Origin: a virus
Taxonomy: Duplodnaviria > Heunggongvirae > Uroviricota > Caudoviricetes
IMG/VR virus record: IMGVR_UViG_2713896908_000007
Direction: 5' to 3' (one strand)
Length of the DNA: 64,000 nt
Both the position numbers and the translations under genes were made by a program. Below the pieces are notes generated by a model that ran no database searches, was not told the origin of the DNA, and saw only the letters and a list, made by a program, of their open reading frames with translations. How positions within the stretch are numbered: the first letter of the stretch is position 1; each line of letters starts with the position of its first letter. Below are positions 39,654 through 57,024 of this stretch, piece after piece.

Positions 39654-40505
39654 ATGATAAATTATGTCTACGGCGAACAACTGTACCAGGAGTTCGTCAG
39701 CTTCAGGGATCTCTTTCTAAAAAAAGCTGTTGCACGCGCCCAACACGTTGATGCCGCCAGCGACGGTCGTCCTGTACGCCCGGTTGTCGTTCTACCGTTC
39801 AAAGAAACAGACAGCATTCAGGCTGAAATTGATAAATGGACTTTAATGGCGCGGGAACTGGAACAGTACCCAGACCTCAATATACCAAAGACTATTTTAT
39901 ATCCTGTGCCTAACATCCTTCGCGGTGTGCGTAAGGTTACGACCTATCAGACAGAAGCTGTAAACAGCGTCAACATGACCGCTGGCCGCATTATTCATCT
40001 GATTGATAAGGACATTCGCATCCAAAAAAGCGCGGGGTTCAATGAGCACAGTGCGAAATACATAGAGAACCTGGAAGCAACAAAAGAGCTAATGAAGCAG
40101 TACCCAGAGGATGAAAAATTCCGTATGCGCGTACACGGCTTTAGCGAAACAATGCTGCGCGTCCACTACATTTCCAGTAGCCCTAACTACAATGATGGTA
40201 AATCAGTGAGTTACCATGTGCCACTGTGTGGCGTGTTTATCTGCGATGAAACTCTCCGTGATGGAATTATCATCAACGGTGAATTCGAAAAAGCAAAATT
40301 TAGCCTTTATGACTCCATAGAACCGATCATCTGCGACCGCTGGCCGCAAGCAAAAATATATCGCCTGGCAGATATTGAAAATGTAAAAAAACAAATTGCC
40401 ATCACTCGCGAAGAGAAAAAGGTTAAGTCAGCCGCATCAGTTACGCGCAGCCGTAAAACTAAGAAGGGGCAGCCAGTAAACGACAACCCCGAAAGCGCGC
40501 AATAA
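39654..40505 (+). CDS. c1: C1 repressor of lysogeny (283 aa)
   Basis: GGAGGA upstream; size, position next to coi/loxP and the dispersed 17-mer operators fit P1 C1. Confidence 0.85.
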   Translation: MINYVYGEQLYQEFVSFRDLFLKKAVARAQHVDAASDGRPVRPVVVLPFKETDSIQAEIDKWTLMARELEQYPDLNIPKTILYPVPNILRGVRKVTTYQTEAVNSVNMTAGRIIHLIDKDIRIQKSAGFNEHSAKYIENLEATKELMKQYPEDEKFRMRVHGFSETMLRVHYISSSPNYNDGKSVSYHVPLCGVFICDETLRDGIIINGEFEKAKFSLYDSIEPIICDRWPQAKIYRLADIENVKKQIAITREEKKVKSAASVTRSRKTKKGQPVNDNPESAQ

Positions 40506-48504: not shown

Positions 48505-48725
48505 TATCGGTTAACCAGTTCCTTGTTGGTGGAGTCCAGGGTGTCAAACAGGGATGCAAATTCAGCATCCAGCGCCGCTTTTTTGTAGGCTTCGAAAGTG
48601 GCCTTGCTGACAATTACGGCTGATTCACGGCCTCTGCGGATGATTTCAACCTCTTCCCCTGCTTCAACATTATTGAGCACTTCGCTAAGGTTGCCGCGTG
48701 CGGTACGGAAGTTAATGGATTGCAT
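48504..48725 (-). CDS. phd: Phd antitoxin (73 aa)
   Basis: [73 protein letters not shown]. Confidence 0.95.
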
Positions 48726-48729
48726 AAAC

Positions 48730-48770
48730 ACCTCGTGTACTCGTTATGTGTACACAATTATAAACTTCAC
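48730..48770 (-). promoter_or_regulatory. phd-doc promoter/operator with palindromes
   Basis: Perfect palindrome TGTGTACACA (48747..48756) and half-site GTGTAC (48735..48740) between TTATAAT -10 and phd SD. Confidence 0.6.
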
Positions 48771-48901
48771 AAGCATAAAGCACCAGCACTTTGCAGCTTA
48801 ACAAAACTCTAGGCAGGTCATTCGTTGCCTAATATCCGAACTACTAAAGCATCAGAGTTGCTGTAGAATCACCGCCAATTACATAAGCCTGAAATAAGTG
48901 G

Positions 48902-50464
48902 ATGAAAATGACAAGTATTCAACAACGTGCAGAGCTTCATCGTCAAATCTGGCAAATTGCTAACGATGTCAGGGGTTCGGTCGATGGATGGGATTTTAAG
49001 CAATACGTTCTGGGCGCACTTTTCTACCGTTTTATCAGCGAAAATTTTTCCAGTTATATGGAAAATGGTGATGACAGCATCTGTTATGCGGCACTTGATG
49101 ACGGCATTATTACTGATGACATTAAAGACGATGCCATCAGAACCAAAGGCTACTTCATCTACCCCAGTCAGCTTTTCTGCAACGTAGCGGCGAAAGCAAA
49201 TACCAATGACAGACTGAATGCAGATTTAAATAGTATCTTCGTTGCTATCGAAAGCTCTGCTTACGGTTACCCTTCAGAAGCTGACATCAAAGGTTTGTTT
49301 GCTGATTTTGATACAACCAGTAACCGCCTGGGTAACACCGTTAAGGATAAAAATGCCCGCCTGGCTGCGGTTCTGAAAGGGGTCGAAGGGTTAAACCTTG
49401 GTGACTTCAATGAACATCAGATTGACCTGTTCGGTGATGCCTATGAGTTCCTGATTTCTAACTATGCGGCAAATGCCGGTAAGTCAGGCGGTGAGTTCTT
49501 TACACCGCAGCACGTCTCCAAGCTGATTGCACAACTGGCTATGCACGGGCAGACCCACGTTAACAAAATCTACGACCCGGCCGCGGGTTCCGGTTCGCTG
49601 TTGTTGCAGGCTAAAAAGCAGTTTGATAACCATATCATTGAAGAAGGCTTTTTCGGACAGGAAATCAACCATACGACCTATAACCTGGCACGTATGAACA
49701 TGTTTTTGCACAACATCAACTACGACAAGTTTGATATCAAGCTGGGCAATACGCTGACTGAACCGCACTTCAGAGATGAAAAACCGTTTGATGCCATCGT
49801 CTCTAACCCGCCGTATTCGGTGAAATGGATTGGCAGCGATGACCCGACGCTGATTAACGATGAACGTTTTGCCCCGGCTGGCGTTCTGGCCCCCAAATCC
49901 AAAGCTGACTTTGCGTTTGTACTACATGCGCTGAACTATCTTTCGGCCAAAGGTCGCGCCGCGATTGTCTGCTTCCCGGGTATTTTTTACCGTGGCGGCG
50001 CGGAGCAGAAAATCCGTCAGTATCTGGTTGACAATAACTATGTCGAAACCGTGATTTCACTGGCACCGAACCTGTTCTTTGGCACCACCATTGCCGTAAA
50101 TATTCTGGTGCTGTCTAAACATAAAACGGATACCAAAGTTCAGTTTATTGACGCCAGCGAACTGTTCAAAAAAGAGACTAACAACAACATCCTGACCGAT
50201 GCCCATATCGAAAAAATTATGCAGGTATTTTCCAGCAAGGAAGATGTTGCTCATCTGGCGAAATCTGTCACGTTTGAGACCGTTGTCGCGAATGACTATA
50301 ACCTGTCGGTAAGCAGCTATGTGGAAGCGAAAGATAACCGCGAAATTATCGATATCGGTGAGCTGAATGCTGAGCTGAAAACCACGGTCAGCAAAATCGA
50401 CCAGTTGCGCAAAGATATTGATGCGATTGTGGCTGAAATTGAAGGCTGCGAGGTGCAGAAATGA
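48902..50464 (+). CDS. hsdM: Type I restriction-modification methyltransferase subunit HsdM (520 aa)
   Basis: Motifs [15 protein letters not shown] and [10 protein letters not shown]. Confidence 0.95.
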
Positions 50465-51681
50465 GCGAGATGAGTTATCTGGAAAAATTGCTGGATGGGG
50501 TTGAGGTTGAGTGGTTGCCATTGGGGGAAGTCTCAGCCTTAAGAAGAGGCAGAGTTATGTCAAAGGGATATTTAACTGAAAATTTTGGCCCATATCCTGT
50601 CTATAGCTCTCAAACTGCAAATAATGGGAAAATAGGTTCTATCAATACCTTCGATTTTGATGGCGAATATATAAGCTGGACAACAGATGGCGCAAATGCA
50701 GGCACTGTGTTCTATCGAACAGGTAAATTTTCAATAACTAATGTTTGCGGCCTGATTACATTAAAAAGTAAATACCCATTAATCTACAAATTTCTGTTTT
50801 ACTGGCTAACAATAGAAGCCAAAAAACATGTTTACTCAGGAATGGGAAACCCCAAGTTAATGAGTCATCAGGTTGAAAATATACCTGTACCAATCCCCTG
50901 CCCGGATAATCCGGAAAAATCCCTTGCCATCCAGTCTGAAATCGTTCGGATTCTGGATAAATTTACTGAGCTTACAGCTGAGCTTACAGCTGAGCTTACA
51001 GCTGAGCTTACCATGCGTAAAAAACAGTACAACTACTATCTTGACCAGTCGCTAAGTTTTAAAGAGGGTGAGGTCGAGTTGAAAACGTTGGGAGAGATGG
51101 GGACACTTATAAGAGGCAAACGCTTTGTGAAATCCGACATAATTCCCAAGGGAGTACCGTGTATTCACTACGGTGAAATGTATACCCATTACCGCATCTG
51201 GGCGGATAAAGCAAAATCGTATATCTCTGTTGAATTAGCGTCCAAGTTAAGAAAAGCCTCATGCGGAGATGTTGTTTTTGTCTCTGCGGGTGAAACAATT
51301 GCAGATATTGGTCGTGGAACAGCCTGGTTAGGCGATGAAGATGTTGTTATTCATGACGCATGTTTTTTCTATAAAAGTTCATTGAACCCCAAGTATGTGG
51401 CCTACTTCTCAAGAACAAATTTCTTCCACGATCAGATTAAAAAATCGATCTCTTCGGGGAAAATTTCTGCCATCAATGCCAAAGGCTTTGAAAAAGTGAT
51501 TATTCCAGTTCCTTCACCAGAAGAACAAGCACGCATCGTTGCTTTCTTGGACAAATTCGACACATTGACAAGCTCCATCACCGAAGGCTTACCCCGTGAA
51601 ATAGAACTACGCCAGAAGCAGTACGAGTACTATCGTGATTTACTGTTCAGTTTCCCAAAACCTGAAGCTGTCAGTAATTAA
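50461..51681 (+). CDS. hsdS: Type I specificity subunit HsdS, type IC-like with TAEL repeats (406 aa)
   Basis: ATGA overlap with hsdM; central [16 protein letters not shown] repeat between two target-recognition domains. Confidence 0.9.
50968..51012 (+). repeat. 12-bp tandem repeat (GAGCTTACAGCT x3 plus partial copy) in hsdS central region
   Basis: Direct reading of 50968..51012. Confidence 0.95.
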
Positions 51682-51802
51682 TTGACCATTGCTACCGACC
51701 GGGCCACCTTAACACCCGGTCAGTATATAGACTATTTTTTACACGCTGGAAGTCACCATTAACGCCCTTCCGGCCCTTGCCAGACGGCACAAAGGATACG
51801 CT

Positions 51803-54800
51803 ATGACTCATCAAACACACACCATTGCTGAATCCAATAACTTTATCGTTCTTGATAAATACATCAAAGCTGAGCAAACAGGCGACAGCTATCAGAGCGA
51901 ATCGGACCTGGAACGTGAACTGATTCAGGACCTGCAAAATCAGGGCTATGAATTTATATCCGTAAAATCACAGTCAGCGATGCTGGCCAACGTTCGGGAA
52001 CAGCTTCAGAGCCTCAATGGTGTGATGTTTAATGACAGAGAGTGGCGGCGTTTCACGGAGCAGTATCTGGACAACCCGAGCGATGGCATTCTGGATAAGA
52101 CCCGTAAAATCCATATCGACTATATTTGCGACTTTATTTTTGATGACGAGCGACTTGAGAACATCTATTTGATAGATAAAAAGAATCTCATGCGCAATAA
52201 GGTGCAGATTATCCAGCAGTTTGAACAGACGGGTTCTCATGCTAACCGTTATGACGTCACGATCCTGGTTAATGGTTTACCGCTGGTGCAAATCGAACTA
52301 AAAAAACGCGGGGTGGCGATTCGTGAGGCTTTCAACCAGATACATCGTTACAGTAAAGAGAGTTTTAACAGCGAAAATTCCCTGTTTAAGTATCTGCAAC
52401 TGTTTGTCATTTCTAACGGCACCGATACCCGTTACTTTGCCAACACCACAAAGCGCGATAAAAACAGTTTTGACTTCACAATGAACTGGGCGAAATCAGA
52501 CAACACGCTGATTAAAGACCTCAAAGACTTTACCGCTACCTTTTTCCAGAAACATACTCTGCTGAATGTTCTGGTGAACTACAGCGTTTTTGACAGTAGT
52601 CAGACGCTACTGGTGATGCGACCGTACCAGATTGCAGCTACCGAACGAATTTTATGGAAAATCAACAGTTCCTATAAAGCGAAAAACTGGTCCACTCCCG
52701 AAAGTGGTGGCTTTATCTGGCACACCACCGGTTCCGGTAAAACACTGACCAGCTTTAAAGCCGCGCGTCTGGCAACAGAACTGGACTTTATTGATAAAGT
52801 CTTCTTCGTGGTCGACAGAAAAGACCTCGATTACCAGACGATGAAGGAATATCAGCGTTTTTCGCCAGACAGCGTCAACGGCTCGGAAAATACCGCAGGA
52901 CTTAAACGAAATCTGGATAAGGACGATAACAAAATTATCGTCACCACTATTCAGAAACTCAATAACCTGATGAAAGCAGAAAGCGACCTGCCTGTATACA
53001 ATCAGCAAGTGGTGTTTATATTTGATGAATGTCACCGCAGCCAGTTTGGAGAAGCACAGAAAAACCTGAAGAAGAAATTCAAACGCTATTATCAGTTTGG
53101 TTTTACCGGCACACCTATTTTCCCGGAAAACGCCTTAGGCTCAGAAACAACCGCCAGCGTATTTGGCCGTGAATTGCATTCATATGTTATTACCGATGCG
53201 ATTCGTGACGAAAAAGTGCTCAAATTCAAGGTGGACTACAACGATGTGCGGCCACAGTTTAAGTCTTTAGAGACAGAAACTGACGAGAAAAAACTGAGTG
53301 CGGCTGAAAATCAGCAGGCGTTTCTTCATCCCATGCGTATTCAGGAAATCACGCAATATATCCTGAACAACTTCCGCCAGAAAACCCACCGTACTTTCCC
53401 TGGTTCCAAAGGTTTTAATGCCATGCTGGCAGTAAGCAGCGTGGATGCTGCAAAAGCCTATTATGCGACGTTTAAACGGTTACAAGAGGAAGCCGCTAAT
53501 AAATCTGCAACTTATAAACCGCTGCGTGTTGCGACAATCTTCTCCTTTGCCGCTAATGAAGAACAAAATGCCATTGGTGAAATTTCCGATGAAACTTTTG
53601 ATACCAGCGCAATGGACAGCAGTGCTAAAGAGTTTCTTGACGCTGCAATTCGTGAGTATAACAGCTATTTTAAAACTAACTTCAGCACCGACGGTAACGG
53701 TTTTCAGAACTACTATCGTGATTTAGCCCAACGGGTTAAAAATCAGGATATCGATCTGTTAATTGTCGTTGGGATGTTTTTAACCGGCTTCGACGCTCCA
53801 ACATTGAACACGCTATTCGTCGATAAAAACTTGCGTTTTCACGGCCTGATGCAGGCATTTTCCCGCACCAACCGTATTTATGATGCAACTAAAACCTTCG
53901 GTAATATCGTCACTTTCCGCGATCTGGAACGCTCAACCATCGATGCCATAACGCTGTTTGGTGACAAAAACACCAAAAATGTAGTGTTAGAAAAGAGTTA
54001 TGCAGAGTATATGGAAGGCTTTACTGATGCTGCTACTGGTGAAGCTAAGCGCGGCTTTATGGCAGTAGTTGCAGAACTGGAACAACGGTTCCCTGACCCT
54101 GCCAGTATTGAAAGTGAAAAAGAGAAGAAAGACTTCGTTAAACTGTTTGGTGAATACCTGCGTACCGAGAACATCCTGCAAAACTATGATGAATTTGCCA
54201 CGCTGAAAGCCCTGCAACAAATCGATCTTAGCGATCCTGTTGCAGTAGAAAAATTCAAAGCAGAACATTATGTGGATGATGAAAAGCTCGCTGAATTGCA
54301 AACAATTCGTCTCCCTGCTGATCGCAAGATTCAGGATTATCGTTCTGCCTATAACGATATTCGCGACTGGCAGCGCCGTGAGAAAGAAGCTGAGAAAAAA
54401 GAGAAATCAACCATTGACTGGGATGACGTAGTTTTTGAGGTCGATTTGCTGAAGTCTCAGGAAATAAACCTGGATTATATCCTTGGACTGATTTTCGAAC
54501 ACAACAGACAAAATAAAGGCAAGGGCGAAATGATCGAAGAGGTCAAACGCTTAATTCGTTCAAGCCTAGGGAACCGTGCTAAAGAGGGCTTGGTGGTCGA
54601 TTTTATTCAGCAAACGAACCTGGATGATTTACCAGATAAAGCCAGTATCATTGAGGCATTCTTTACGTTTGCTCAACGCGAACAGCAACGTGAAGCAGAA
54701 GCATTGATAAAAGAAGAAAATCTCAATGAAGAAGCAGCAAAACGCTATATTCGCACGTCTTTAAAACGCGAATACGCCACCGAAAATGGCACAGAATTAA

Positions 54801-54919
54801 ACGAAACATTACCAAAACTTAGTCCGTTGAATCCGCAATATAAAACGAAAAAACAGGCAGTTTTCCAGAAAATCGTCTCGTTTATTGAGAAGTTTAAAGG
54901 CGTAGGCGGAAAAATATAG
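51803..54919 (+). CDS. hsdR: Type I restriction endonuclease/translocase subunit HsdR (1038 aa)
   Basis: Walker [13 protein letters not shown]; DEAD-box-like [10 protein letters not shown]; helicase motifs; AAGGA 6 nt upstream. Confidence 0.95.
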
Positions 54920-54998
54920 CCCAATTCGTGTTTTTCTTGCGGGTTCTTAATTAAACCCGCAAGAGCTCGTGGGGTTCCAAATGGCTAATATACTCCCA

Positions 54999-55085
54999 TT
55001 ACCCATGCGCGACGATGCCGCCAAAAGTGATAGAGAACAGCCAGAAATAGATCGCGGCCATAATGATTTTGAATGCCGTGTTCAT
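54999..55085 (-). CDS. Small hydrophobic peptide ORF (28 aa), candidate membrane toxin-like peptide
   Basis: ATG with AGGAG 8 nt upstream; MNTAFKIIMAAIYFWLFSITFGGIVAHG; upstream operator-like site. Confidence 0.3.
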   Translation of the reverse strand: MNTAFKIIMAAIYFWLFSITFGGIVAHG

Positions 55086-55113
55086 ATCCTCAGCTCCTGT
55101 GATTGATTGGATA

Positions 55114-55144
55114 CATGCCGCGCCTTGCGGCATGTTTTTATTTT
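55114..55144 (+). terminator. Rho-independent terminator downstream of hsdR
   Basis: CATGCCGC-gcctt-GCGGCATG followed by TTTTTATTTT. Confidence 0.75.
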
Positions 55145-55166
55145 CACCATCTCTGTTTAAAAATCA

Positions 55167-55183
55167 AGTTTTATTAGAGCAAT
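55167..55183 (-). promoter_or_regulatory. C1 operator-like site (15/17)
   Basis: AGTTTTATTAGAGCAAT at 3' end of HAD-phosphatase gene, upstream of small peptide ORF. Confidence 0.6.
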
Positions 55184-55689
55184 TATTGTTGATAAAGAAG
55201 CGCATTTTCATACTCCCTGACCATTAACGTAAGTACGCCGTGACTCCTGAAAACACGCGCCACTTCAATCTTATCTTCCAGCGCGAACGCAATTTTACTT
55301 AGACCAATTTTCTTCAGGAGATCAATCTTTGCTGGACCGTCATTTCTGTCATCGGTGGCAGGACGCATAGATAGCAAAGGCTCAGCCCCGTTTGTTACGT
55401 GCTTCCGCAGCCAGGCTCGTGTTTTATCCCTTGCGATCTCACAGCGCCCGGTTACAAACCAGACCGTGTAAACGTTAAATAACTGGCGCACCATATCAAT
55501 AACTGGAGTTATGGGAGTATCGGTGTCACAGGCGAGATTAAACTCGTTCCAGTCCTTTGTTAATGCACCTTTACCTGGTGGCGGAAGCAAATGCAGTCTG
55601 TCTTCAGTTGCCTCTGATATTGTTCCATCAATATCAACTATGACGATATACGGACGTTCATGGTGTGCGTGTTGGTTGAAAATACTCAA
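55183..55689 (-). CDS. HAD-superfamily phosphatase-like protein (168 aa)
   Basis: DxDGT motif IVIVDIDGTI and downstream FVTGR. Confidence 0.65.
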   Translation of the reverse strand: MSIFNQHAHHERPYIVIVDIDGTISEATEDRLHLLPPPGKGALTKDWNEFNLACDTDTPITPVIDMVRQLFNVYTVWFVTGRCEIARDKTRAWLRKHVTNGAEPLLSMRPATDDRNDGPAKIDLLKKIGLSKIAFALEDKIEVARVFRSHGVLTLMVREYENALLYQQ

Positions 55690-55708
55690 ATGCCCTCCTC
55701 ATTGGACG

Positions 55709-55740
55709 AAAAAAATGCTGGTGGGCGCACTCCACCAGCA
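55709..55740 (-). terminator. Rho-independent terminator between 420-aa gene and HAD gene
   Basis: Minus strand UGCUGGUGG-agugcgc-CCACCAGCA followed by U7. Confidence 0.6.
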
Positions 55741-55761
55741 TTAAAAGTGACACTGTAACTA

Positions 55762-57024
55762 TCAGCGAACGTAAATAGTGCCGCCGTTCTCTTTTTCCCA
55801 TGCATCGCTACGTGCATAGCAAACATCGAGAAGTCTTCTTGCCGCTGTTTCCTCTAAACCCAATTCGACAACCAACTGCTCATGACGGCGGGTAACCACA
55901 TCAAACAGGGTATGCAACCCTTTAGTTGCCAGATCATCAATGAATTCCGGTTCGAACGGCAGCTCTGCATCTGCCAACATAACCTCTTGCGCCCACTCAA
56001 CTCGACGGACCAGTTCCGGGCGGCGGCTTTCCATCTCTTTACAGATCAATTCATGGAAGAACTCTACCCAACCCTCCGGCTGGAACTCGCGGAAAATGGC
56101 CAACGGCTGGAAGTTTGGCATCAACCATTCGTTGATCCGGATATCAATGGCATAGCCCATGTCGCAGCAGAACTGATAAGCAAAGTCCAGCTTAGAAACG
56201 ATATAAGGACGCTCGTTATTGAACTCTTTAGGCGATGAGATCCCATAAGCCAGGAGGCGCGGGAAGAAGGAGATTTGCCCTAACGTCGGATGAAGTTTGC
56301 TTGCAGGGAAACGGCGCTCAGTAATGCCATACATTTCCTTCTTGAGCGTCGCAAATTTGGCATTCTCATTAACCAGCGCGGTAACCTCTGCTTTTTTATT
56401 AGCAAATGCCACGCGCGCTTCGCTTGCATCTTTAATAGTTTTTTTGAGCTGTTGGTTAAGGTCGGCGACCTGCTTACGCAGTTCCTGTCGCTCGCTTTTA
56501 GCTTTGTTATAGCGTTTCTCAAGGTTAAAAGGATCAAGTTTCATGATCTCTTTATATTGAGATTTTAGCGTTGAAATCTGTGAGTTCCGCAGTTCAACCA
56601 TCGCGGTCATTTCATTGAGTTTTGTTTCCAGCTCAATGCTTATACGTTCGGCATTATCAGCACGCTGGTTGGCGTCATGCGTCGCATCGTCGATCGCGTC
56701 CTGTTGCTGGCGTTTCAAATGTTCAATTTGCAGCTGAAGCTCTTCAATTTCTTTACCCTTCAGACCGAGATCCAACTGCATATTTTCAGCTGCATCTACC
56801 AGGTCGTTATGGCTATCAGCTTCTGCGTTATAAACATCAATAAGCTGTGCATGGAGCATCTCTGCTGACTGAACCGCATTATCAAAAAAACGAGCTGTGA
56901 GGTCATCACAACTAACGCGGCGTTGCGCGGCCCGGATGTTCTGGATAATGGCCGGGATACCGGCATTCAGGACATCAGGGATAGATACATTTTCGATTGA
57001 TTGGTTTTGTGCTGAAGTGCTCAT
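55762..57024 (-). CDS. Coiled-coil hypothetical protein (420 aa)
   Basis: Long ORF with extended heptad-rich central region; downstream of paired operators. Confidence 0.6.
   Translation of the reverse strand: MSTSAQNQSIENVSIPDVLNAGIPAIIQNIRAAQRRVSCDDLTARFFDNAVQSAEMLHAQLIDVYNAEADSHNDLVDAAENMQLDLGLKGKEIEELQLQIEHLKRQQQDAIDDATHDANQRADNAERISIELETKLNEMTAMVELRNSQISTLKSQYKEIMKLDPFNLEKRYNKAKSERQELRKQVADLNQQLKKTIKDASEARVAFANKKAEVTALVNENAKFATLKKEMYGITERRFPASKLHPTLGQISFFPRLLAYGISSPKEFNNERPYIVSKLDFAYQFCCDMGYAIDIRINEWLMPNFQPLAIFREFQPEGWVEFFHELICKEMESRRPELVRRVEWAQEVMLADAELPFEPEFIDDLATKGLHTLFDVVTRRHEQLVVELGLEETAARRLLDVCYARSDAWEKENGGTIYVR

Follow-up and report, generated by a model that had tools for sequence, protein, structure and literature searches.

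A conserved small gene behind operator Op88 of P1-like phage-plasmids, predicted to encode a single-helix membrane peptide

Introduction

A short open reading frame (ORF) that lies behind an operator-like site at the edge of a restriction-modification (R-M) cassette raises the question of whether it is a gene at all and, if so, whether its product acts as a toxin, serves only as a translated leader, or has some other function. We addressed this question in a 64,000-nucleotide (nt) stretch of Caudoviricetes DNA (IMG/VR virus record IMGVR_UViG_2713896908_000007; hereafter the window, by which we mean the whole stretch), which by sequence comparison is a P1-like phage-plasmid: the region around the small ORF has 97–98% identity to phage-plasmids of the P1 group (P1, P7, SJ46, RCS47, and others). 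An original prediction, made from the letters of the window without database searches, had described a repressor-controlled small membrane peptide that could be a toxin-like or lysis-timing factor. Here we provide evidence that the small ORF is probably a genuine, unnamed gene of the P1 backbone, namely the first C1-repressed cistron of its operon, encoding a single-helix membrane peptide with an early accessory function.

The small ORF and its relatives

The ORF runs from ATG to TAA on the minus strand (54999..55085), where a 28-amino-acid (aa) hydrophobic ORF antisense to the hsdR terminator region had been reported, and its product is MNTAFKIIMAAIYFWLFSITFGGIVAHG; it forms the inner part of a longer listed ORF (54999..55133). 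The Shine-Dalgarno (SD) sequence AGGAG of the original prediction is likewise in place at 55094..55098 (minus strand), 8 nt before the ATG, and it is preceded by a conserved CA-rich leader, TATCCAATCAATCAC (55099..55113, minus strand), that alignment and folds predict to be unpaired. A 28-codon ORF with an SD sequence is not unusual in 64 kb, and the small ORF stands above chance because of comparative evidence rather than because of these two features alone.

The same ORF is present in the P1 genome (NC_005856, 84392..84478) between pap and pmgT, where the protein is 100% identical, and in P7, where it differs by one synonymous change and is followed by upf86.8; it is unannotated in both records. 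In P1 its stop codon is followed by GGGGGATGCATG, which holds the SD sequence and start of pmgT. Similarity to the P1 and P7 sequences sets in at about 54995, just beyond the stop codon of the small ORF, and runs through the ORF, hairpin, promoter, operator, and pap, so that the ORF, its leader, and the plus-strand terminator belong to the P1 backbone, the hsd cargo being confined to the sequence on the left. The 28-aa product, operator, promoter, hairpin, and position are alike in P1, P7, SJ46, and the window (the operator differs from that of P1 at one base), whereas the genes that follow the small ORF are co-directional in P1 and P7 and form a convergent hsd cassette in the window. The backbone membership, the 100% identity in P1, and the usual first place of the ORF in a multi-gene operon had all escaped the original prediction.

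That the reference P1 and P7 records leave the ORF unannotated would fit a reading in which the segment is conserved as DNA or RNA, for instance as a promoter-proximal element, as the 3′ untranslated region and terminator of hsdR, or as a recombination boundary, with the frame being incidental. Such a reading would also fit the transfer of the segment, as a truncated remnant, alongside hsd cassettes into IncF plasmids, and the flanks are no less similar among P1-lineage elements (about 97–98% identical). As close relatives are therefore too alike to inform on this point, we sought distant lineages. A tblastn search with the peptide gave matches in 19 phage and 873 plasmid records, and one weak match, to a Salmonella plasmid, proved to be a diverged P1-like element (PmgS 69% identical). 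After pmgS this plasmid carries, in order, the operator ATTGCTCTAATAAATAT, TTGATT, a 17-nt spacer, AAGAAT, a GC-rich hairpin of other sequence, the leader ATCAATCAATCA (the form found in the other lineages), GGAG, and a 46-codon ORF, MHTVFKLAMAAFYIWIFTIVFTGIAKATPVNASEVGVRTIYCDLGE, with the next gene 5 nt past its stop. Protein searches yielded two further alleles of this 46-aa Salmonella type, and a third lineage encodes 48 aa (MNTAFKLAMAAFYFWIFCIAFNGLVKAAPTLQ...) in the same setting, with a stop codon that overlaps the next start. These homologs of 46–48 aa (P0001, P0008, P0009, and P0024 in our set; e.g. NZ_CP077703; from Salmonella and relatives) are syntenic with the small ORF of the window and lie behind the same C1-type operator, and their first 25 residues are 56–68% identical to the window peptide, with conservative replacements. 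They differ from it in having an extra, variable C-terminal tail of 18–20 aa, no upstream pap, another 5′ hairpin, and no opposite-strand terminator.

The ATG, the reading frame, and a GGAG at 5–8 nt are kept in all three lineages. We calculated substitution statistics for each of the three lineage pairs, using the first 25 codons, and found synonymous differences (pS) of 0.63–0.84 and nonsynonymous differences (pN) of 0.17–0.26, compared with 0.77–0.78 and 0.15–0.20, respectively, for pmgS in the same genomes; the resulting pN/pS of the small ORF, about 0.24–0.31 in the three pairs, is the same as that of pmgS. Differences at the first, second, and third codon positions numbered 9/5/15, 7/3/14, and 4/5/11. 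Since pS greatly exceeds pN and the values match those of pmgS, the small ORF evolves as a protein-coding gene, and the substitution pattern is that of purifying selection on the peptide, equal in strength to that on pmgS. In a random-mutation null, in which the 29 nucleotide differences (of 75) from the Salmonella-lineage homolog were placed at random, at least 14 of 25 identical residues were obtained in 6e-4 of trials, and the observed BLOSUM62 score was reached in none of 200,000. No other frame is conserved, as the remaining five carry stops or conserve fewer residues. Nucleotide identity between lineages is 61–73%, third-position changes dominate, and the frame, the start, and the hydrophobic helix are preserved, all of which argues against conservation of the segment as mere DNA or RNA, a reading that we now consider very improbable. 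Among the alleles of the Salmonella lineage, codons 1–27 hardly vary, in contrast to the C-terminal tail, which changes freely. We conclude from these comparisons that the small ORF is indeed a gene, that it codes for protein, and that the N-terminal helix is the functional part of its product. The original prediction had proposed to search relatives for the peptide at the same position and would have been contradicted by a missing translation signal and a frame that is not conserved; what we found was a syntenic peptide in P1, P7, and two diverged lineages, with the SD sequence and frame kept in three lineages and substitutions of the coding type.

Some automatic annotations contain a longer, 44-aa version of the protein (J46_0098 of SJ46, “membrane protein”; RefSeq WP_029399105.1, hypothetical protein). 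We rejected the corresponding start, since its ATG (55131..55133) lies within the hairpin and has neither an SD sequence nor an in-frame counterpart in the other lineages; the 28-codon start is thus the correct one, and the 44-aa annotations are probably an over-extension. The gene is conserved yet unnamed in P1, and some databases list it as a hypothetical or membrane protein.

The 28-aa peptide is predicted to be essentially one transmembrane helix, in agreement with the original prediction. Its best 19-aa hydropathy window covers residues 7–25 (mean 2.1), a lysine occupies position 6, and the AlphaFold2 model of a 46-aa relative has a helix at residues 2–27, the first 20 residues having pLDDT of 85–92 and the tail low confidence. 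Residues M1, T3, F5, K6, M9, A10, A11, Y13, W15, F17, I19, F21, and G23 are invariant across the three lineages, and the remaining positions show conservative hydrophobic swaps. Searches of Pfam, NCBIfam, and PADLOC gave no family match to the peptide at E-values up to 10, PHROGs gave only chance-level matches to families of unknown function, and a profile search of 1.84 billion representatives recovered the same family and one new lineage, with no remote relatives. The peptide sequence was not found in the searchable literature, and the P1 transcriptome papers do not resolve the interval of the small ORF.

Operator and promoter

The operator-like site that had been placed about 80 bp upstream of the ORF is ATTGCTCTAATAAAACT (55167..55183, minus strand), an ortholog of the P1 operator OpmgT (formerly Op88); 82 nt separate its 3′ end from the ATG. 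Compared with the C1 consensus (ATTGCTCTAATAAATTT; 17 bp, asymmetric) the site has two mismatches, and it aligns base for base with the annotated OpmgT of P1, from which it differs at one position; the P7 annotators named this operator Op(hea), and the operon is known in P7 as “hea”. The operator shares bases with the predicted −35 hexamer and takes in the final base of the pap stop codon. A C1-type operator is kept in all three lineages, and the cognate c1 repressor gene, the trans-acting regulator (39654..40505, plus strand), is encoded on the same element and is 98.6% identical to the annotated c1 of phage RCS47. C1 repression would be expected to act in this particular element as well.

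P1 annotation and alignment place a predicted sigma-70 promoter, the ortholog of P1pmgT, at 55140..55167 (minus strand), with a −35 hexamer TTGATT (55162..55167), a −10 hexamer GAAAAT (55140..55145), and a predicted transcription start near 55133. In the P1 record, two predicted promoters, P1pmgT and P2pmgT, have −35 boxes that the operator overlaps. In the non-P1 lineages (loci L007 and L015) the hexamers and a 17-nt spacing are kept and the spacer sequence differs. The spacer of the window (55146..55161) is 16 nt long, compared with 17 nt in P1 and P7, through a 1-nt deletion in the A-run TTTTTAAAAC. Judged by this arrangement and its orthology to P1, the small ORF is the first cistron of a C1-repressed early accessory operon, the Op88/pmgT operon of P1.

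A boundary for exchangeable cargo

P1-like phage-plasmids have eight known regions of high variability, and the stretch from pmgT to humD is one of them (PMC9603915); pmgT, pmgU, and pmgV are non-essential (PMC10695390). In the window, a cassette segment (48725..54995) stands in for the entire P1 stretch from pmgT to humD, between phd/doc and the small ORF, and the junction between P1 backbone and hsd cargo (54991..54998) lies immediately past the small-ORF stop codon. At least three unrelated cargo sets (pmgT/upf86.8, type IC hsd, and Ead/Ea22 with DUF4752) join within about 7 nt of that codon, the junction positions being 54991..55001 in the window, 3080..3120 in locus L016, and about 2990..3005 in locus L001. 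Where Ead/Ea22- and DUF4752-type cargo is joined between GGGTA and T, the stop codon is lost and 10 residues are added; further alleles are extended by 9–37 residues, one of them being fused to a DUF551 protein. The helix is kept in all cargo variants and the exact C-terminus is not.

The next gene normally starts 0–9 nt past the small-ORF stop or overlaps it, as in TGATG of the 48-aa lineage (L015), TAA plus 5 nt in the Salmonella lineage (L007), and TAA-GGGGGATGCATG in P1. This close spacing, together with the invariable position of the ORF as the first after the promoter and the clustering of cargo junctions at its stop codon, is what would be expected of a leader peptide, whose translation matters because it is coupled to the cargo gene or keeps Rho off the leader and whose product is functionless. 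However, a pure translation role does not require that amino acids be conserved while synonymous sites are near saturation, nor that the N-terminal helix be under far stronger constraint than the tail; the folds contained no alternative structures of the attenuator type, and 258 plasmids keep the small ORF intact though no co-directional gene follows it. We therefore regard a functionless leader as unlikely. In the window, replacement of the downstream cargo by convergent hsd leaves the peptide as the sole remaining product of its transcription unit.

In about 330 plasmids, most of them conjugative or mobilizable, the hsd cassette is accompanied by no more than nt 9–87 of the small ORF. In an IncF example (NZ_CP020496; locus L005, 4950..5085) the ORF remnant is joined to an IS1 end, and the promoter and operator are gone. 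The P1 GenBank record gives 96–98% identity between the segment and the DNA that follows R124/3 hsdR and the EcoDXXI hsd locus, and the R124/3 match begins at nt 8 of the ORF, which implies the same IS1 junction. The EcoDXXI locus has a full arrangement like that of the window, whereas in the EcoR124 and IncF loci IS1 cuts the ORF after nt 8 and thereby removes the promoter and operator. Because all IncF copies share one junction, they point to one ancestral event, mediated by IS1, by which the cassette was acquired from a P1-like plasmid, and we accordingly dropped the idea that the truncation is a sign of toxicity. The truncation in IncF and R124 plasmids also means that the ORF is no part of the function of the R-M system, and the P1-backbone origin of the segment accounts for the match to P1 of the DNA that follows hsdR in EcoR124 and EcoDXXI.

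The hairpin, the hsdR terminator, and the antisense overlap

A GC-rich hairpin (stem 55114..55134) with a plus-strand T-run (55136..55145) occupies 55113..55145 and can be read on both strands. On the minus strand it is the predicted 5′ stem-loop of the peptide mRNA, the start near 55133, as inferred from the conserved −10 hexamer, being the first base of the hairpin. Both hairpin types, that of the P1 lineage and that of the other lineages, give a stable fold at the extreme 5′ end. In centroid structures the leader and SD sequence are predicted to be unpaired, and compared with shuffled sequences the mRNA has no excess structure (z of −0.99 and −0.06). A 5′-terminal stem-loop shields Escherichia coli mRNAs such as ompA from 5′-end-dependent decay. 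Given that the two hairpin types are not alignable and that a consensus RNA fold failed, our claim is limited to a hairpin at the same position and does not extend to covariation. We also considered whether the hairpin might end pap transcripts on the sense strand and ruled this out, since no U-run follows it on that strand.

On the plus strand, the hairpin (55113..55135; 10 pairs, 6 of them G–C) is followed by TTTTATTTT and lies 194 nt past the hsdR stop; the site as a whole is the only strong plus-strand terminator candidate between that stop (54919) and pap. An intrinsic terminator of hsdR over the ORF leader had been proposed here (55114..55144), and the site and its position hold, but the terminator is not hsdR's own. 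The terminator-like site is also present in P1 and P7, which have no hsd there, and is missing from the IncF copies of the cassette, where IS1 takes its place, indicating that it is P1 backbone and does not move with the hsd cassette. The plus-strand T-run derives from the A-run between the −10 hexamer and the hairpin, which is found only in the P1 lineage; in the other two lineages GTTTTC occupies the position of the A-run, and no opposite-strand T-run or terminator was called there.

The layout of the window (hsdR, small ORF, operator, pap) is shared by 258 plasmids, in which the backbone site is predicted to be well placed to end hsdR transcripts. The last ~190 nt of the predicted hsdR mRNA are antisense to the whole peptide gene, SD sequence included. 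Such an overlap arises with one type of cargo and is not a conserved feature of the gene. On the minus strand no terminator was found after the small ORF, and one may speculate that, after derepression, transcription enters hsdR in antisense unless Rho stops it.

The overlap bears on the toxin-like or lysis-timing role of the original prediction, which in its fuller form supposes a peptide resembling type I toxins that depolarizes or permeabilizes the inner membrane once C1 lifts, with the hsdR antisense adding RNA silencing. The size and hydrophobicity of the peptide (28 aa; 19-aa window 2.1) are typical of such toxins, its transcription is under tight repression through the C1 operator, and in the window the hsdR transcript must cross the ORF and SD sequence in antisense to reach the only good terminator. 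Nevertheless, the peptide has no match to Hok/Gef, Ldr, TisB, Ibs, or any other toxin family of Pfam, NCBIfam, or PHROG at E-values up to 10, and no promoter-like site was found on the opposite strand of the conserved segment in the window, L007, or L015, which represent the three lineages. Rfam gave no family at threshold for the locus, with weak GcvB and isrK matches (plus strand) over the terminator-like hairpin that are far below gathering scores. The opposite-strand T-run is missing outside the P1 lineage, the mRNA is not more structured than its shuffles, and the SD sequence is predicted to be open, with no fold that sequesters the ribosome-binding site. In addition, the P1-type peptide lacks a charged or amphipathic tail, and in most relatives ordinary early genes lie right next to the ORF and run in its direction. 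Three of the four testable defining features of a type I system failed. As for lysis timing, the lysis genes of P1 are late genes under late promoters, and the annotated late promoters of P1 (e.g. LPhot) form a class apart from a sigma-70, C1-controlled early promoter. With no match to a toxin or holin family, no antisense promoter, an open SD sequence, and a promoter of the early type, a toxin-like or lysis-timing factor is unlikely, and this part of the original prediction was not borne out. Its other part, a repressor-controlled small membrane peptide, is supported by the orthology of the C1 operator and the conserved frame.

The surrounding element

In a search with the query region, two phage records align over the entire query, hsd genes included, and the closest plasmid over a 341-bp junction segment is one of Escherichia albertii (100%). 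The hsd cassette as a whole is type IC-sized (48902..54919, plus strand) and comprises, from the ORF list and comparison, hsdM (48902..50464, 520 aa), hsdS (50461..51681, 406 aa), and hsdR (51803..54919, 1038 aa), all type IC and on the plus strand, the last convergent with the small ORF. The doc gene is present, judged by ORF size and by the Phd/Doc genes that flank the hsd cassette in near-identical phage. Phage vB_EcoM-673R5 has the same hsd layout, with hsdM and hsdR annotated there as fragments. Inside the cassette, 17 nt past the hsdR stop, is a 10-bp hairpin (CTTGCGGGTT/AACCCGCAAG; 54936..54963) that is kept in the IncF copies. On the plus strand a T-run precedes this hairpin and none comes after it, and since no T-run follows it on either strand it is no canonical terminator in either direction and was not called as one.

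On the other side of the locus, pap (3′-phosphatase/polynucleotide kinase-type; 55183..55689, minus strand) is the upstream neighbor, with a stop codon that abuts the operator, and beyond it are pmgS (55762..57024, minus strand) and then the pmgR, pmgQ, and ppp block. A strong terminator-like hairpin with a T-run (55714..55742, minus strand) lies between pmgS and pap, which suggests that pap is not simply co-transcribed with pmgR and pmgS. In both non-P1 lineages pap is absent and the C1 operator comes directly after pmgS (loci L007 and L015, 3834..3915; compare 55183..55760 in the window), so that pap looks like an insertion, specific to the P1 lineage, between the pmgS terminator and the operator.

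Discussion

Taken together, the conserved frame, the coding-type substitution, and the orthologous operator favor a small membrane peptide gene at the head of a C1-repressed operon, and several points weigh against this reading or narrow it. The predicted promoter matches the consensus at 8 of 12 positions, which is below the threshold of a consensus scan, and the transcription start, translation, and membrane insertion are predicted from sequence. Only three lineages are available, with 25 codons behind the selection statistics. Downstream of distant pmgS homologs (20–24% identity), which were inspected in Pantoea, Citrobacter, and a divergent plasmid of E. coli, there is no member of the family, no C1-type operator, and no small hydrophobic ORF. 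By rough count, the ORF occurs in 873 records, of which about 330 are IncF remnants, and PmgS at ≥90% identity in 677, which suggests that some P1-like plasmids are without it. The persistence of extended variants implies that elements can do without the exact C-terminus or, in some cases, without the gene, and because longer homologs carry lysine on either side of the helix, the membrane topology is ambiguous.

If the gene works as we propose, C1 bound to the operator would hold the promoter off in the lysogen, and upon induction or infection sigma-70 RNA polymerase would initiate near 55133. The stable 5′ stem-loop would protect the peptide mRNA in the manner established for ompA, and the open CA-rich leader and SD sequence would permit early synthesis of the peptide, which would then insert into the inner membrane, where its conserved helix would contact a host or phage membrane component. 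We infer both the membrane insertion and any such target. The role would be an accessory one, of the host-takeover or exclusion type, rather than an essential step, and in hsd-carrying variants the backbone hairpin and A/T-run would double as the terminator of convergent hsdR transcripts.

A more specific version of this scenario is a dedicated early effector that binds a particular inner-membrane protein of the host. Such an effector may block superinfection, block a membrane-anchored defense, or alter a transporter or protease, and the peptide may have been retained as the fixed “first gene” heading a hotspot of cargo exchange. A second possibility concerns plasmids with convergent type IC hsd, roughly half of those that are P1-like, in which the derepressed promoter may read antisense into hsdR; this, if true, would be a C1-gated means to lower restriction during phage DNA replication. 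To this more specific reading we assign only a small chance.

For the more general reading, that of a conserved small membrane peptide gene with an accessory function, the consequence is that the Op88 operon can be recast as a fixed part, the small membrane peptide, followed by exchangeable cargo, which includes pmgTUV, Ead/Ea22-type genes, methyltransferases, and a reversed type IC R-M system. P1 is among the most used and best annotated of phages, and its reference records omit a conserved gene located right behind Op88. The gene offers a concrete and cheap target for work on small proteins, and the 44-aa start of some automatic annotations is now corrected; should the peptide prove to be without phenotype, the finding would be an ordinary one.

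The gene is of a familiar kind, that of small phage-encoded membrane proteins, and is lacking from the reference annotations of P1 and P7. Among known systems, the type I toxins (Hok/Gef, TisB, Ldr, Ibs, ShoB, and DinQ) are likewise small, single-helix hydrophobic peptides that are off in the resting state; the P1 peptide, in contrast, has no match to their families, no dedicated antisense RNA gene, and no translation-blocking fold, and has instead a protein repressor at its promoter. A second comparison is with MgrB, MgtS, AcrZ, KdpF, PmrR, and SafA of E. coli and Salmonella, small modulators of the inner membrane that have fewer than 50 aa and one transmembrane helix. The P1 peptide resembles them in its length of fewer than 50 aa, its one conserved transmembrane helix, and its minimal or variable extramembrane part, and by analogy this combination suggests action through helix–helix contact. 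Unlike these modulators, with which it shares no homology, the P1 gene is phage-borne and controlled by a repressor.

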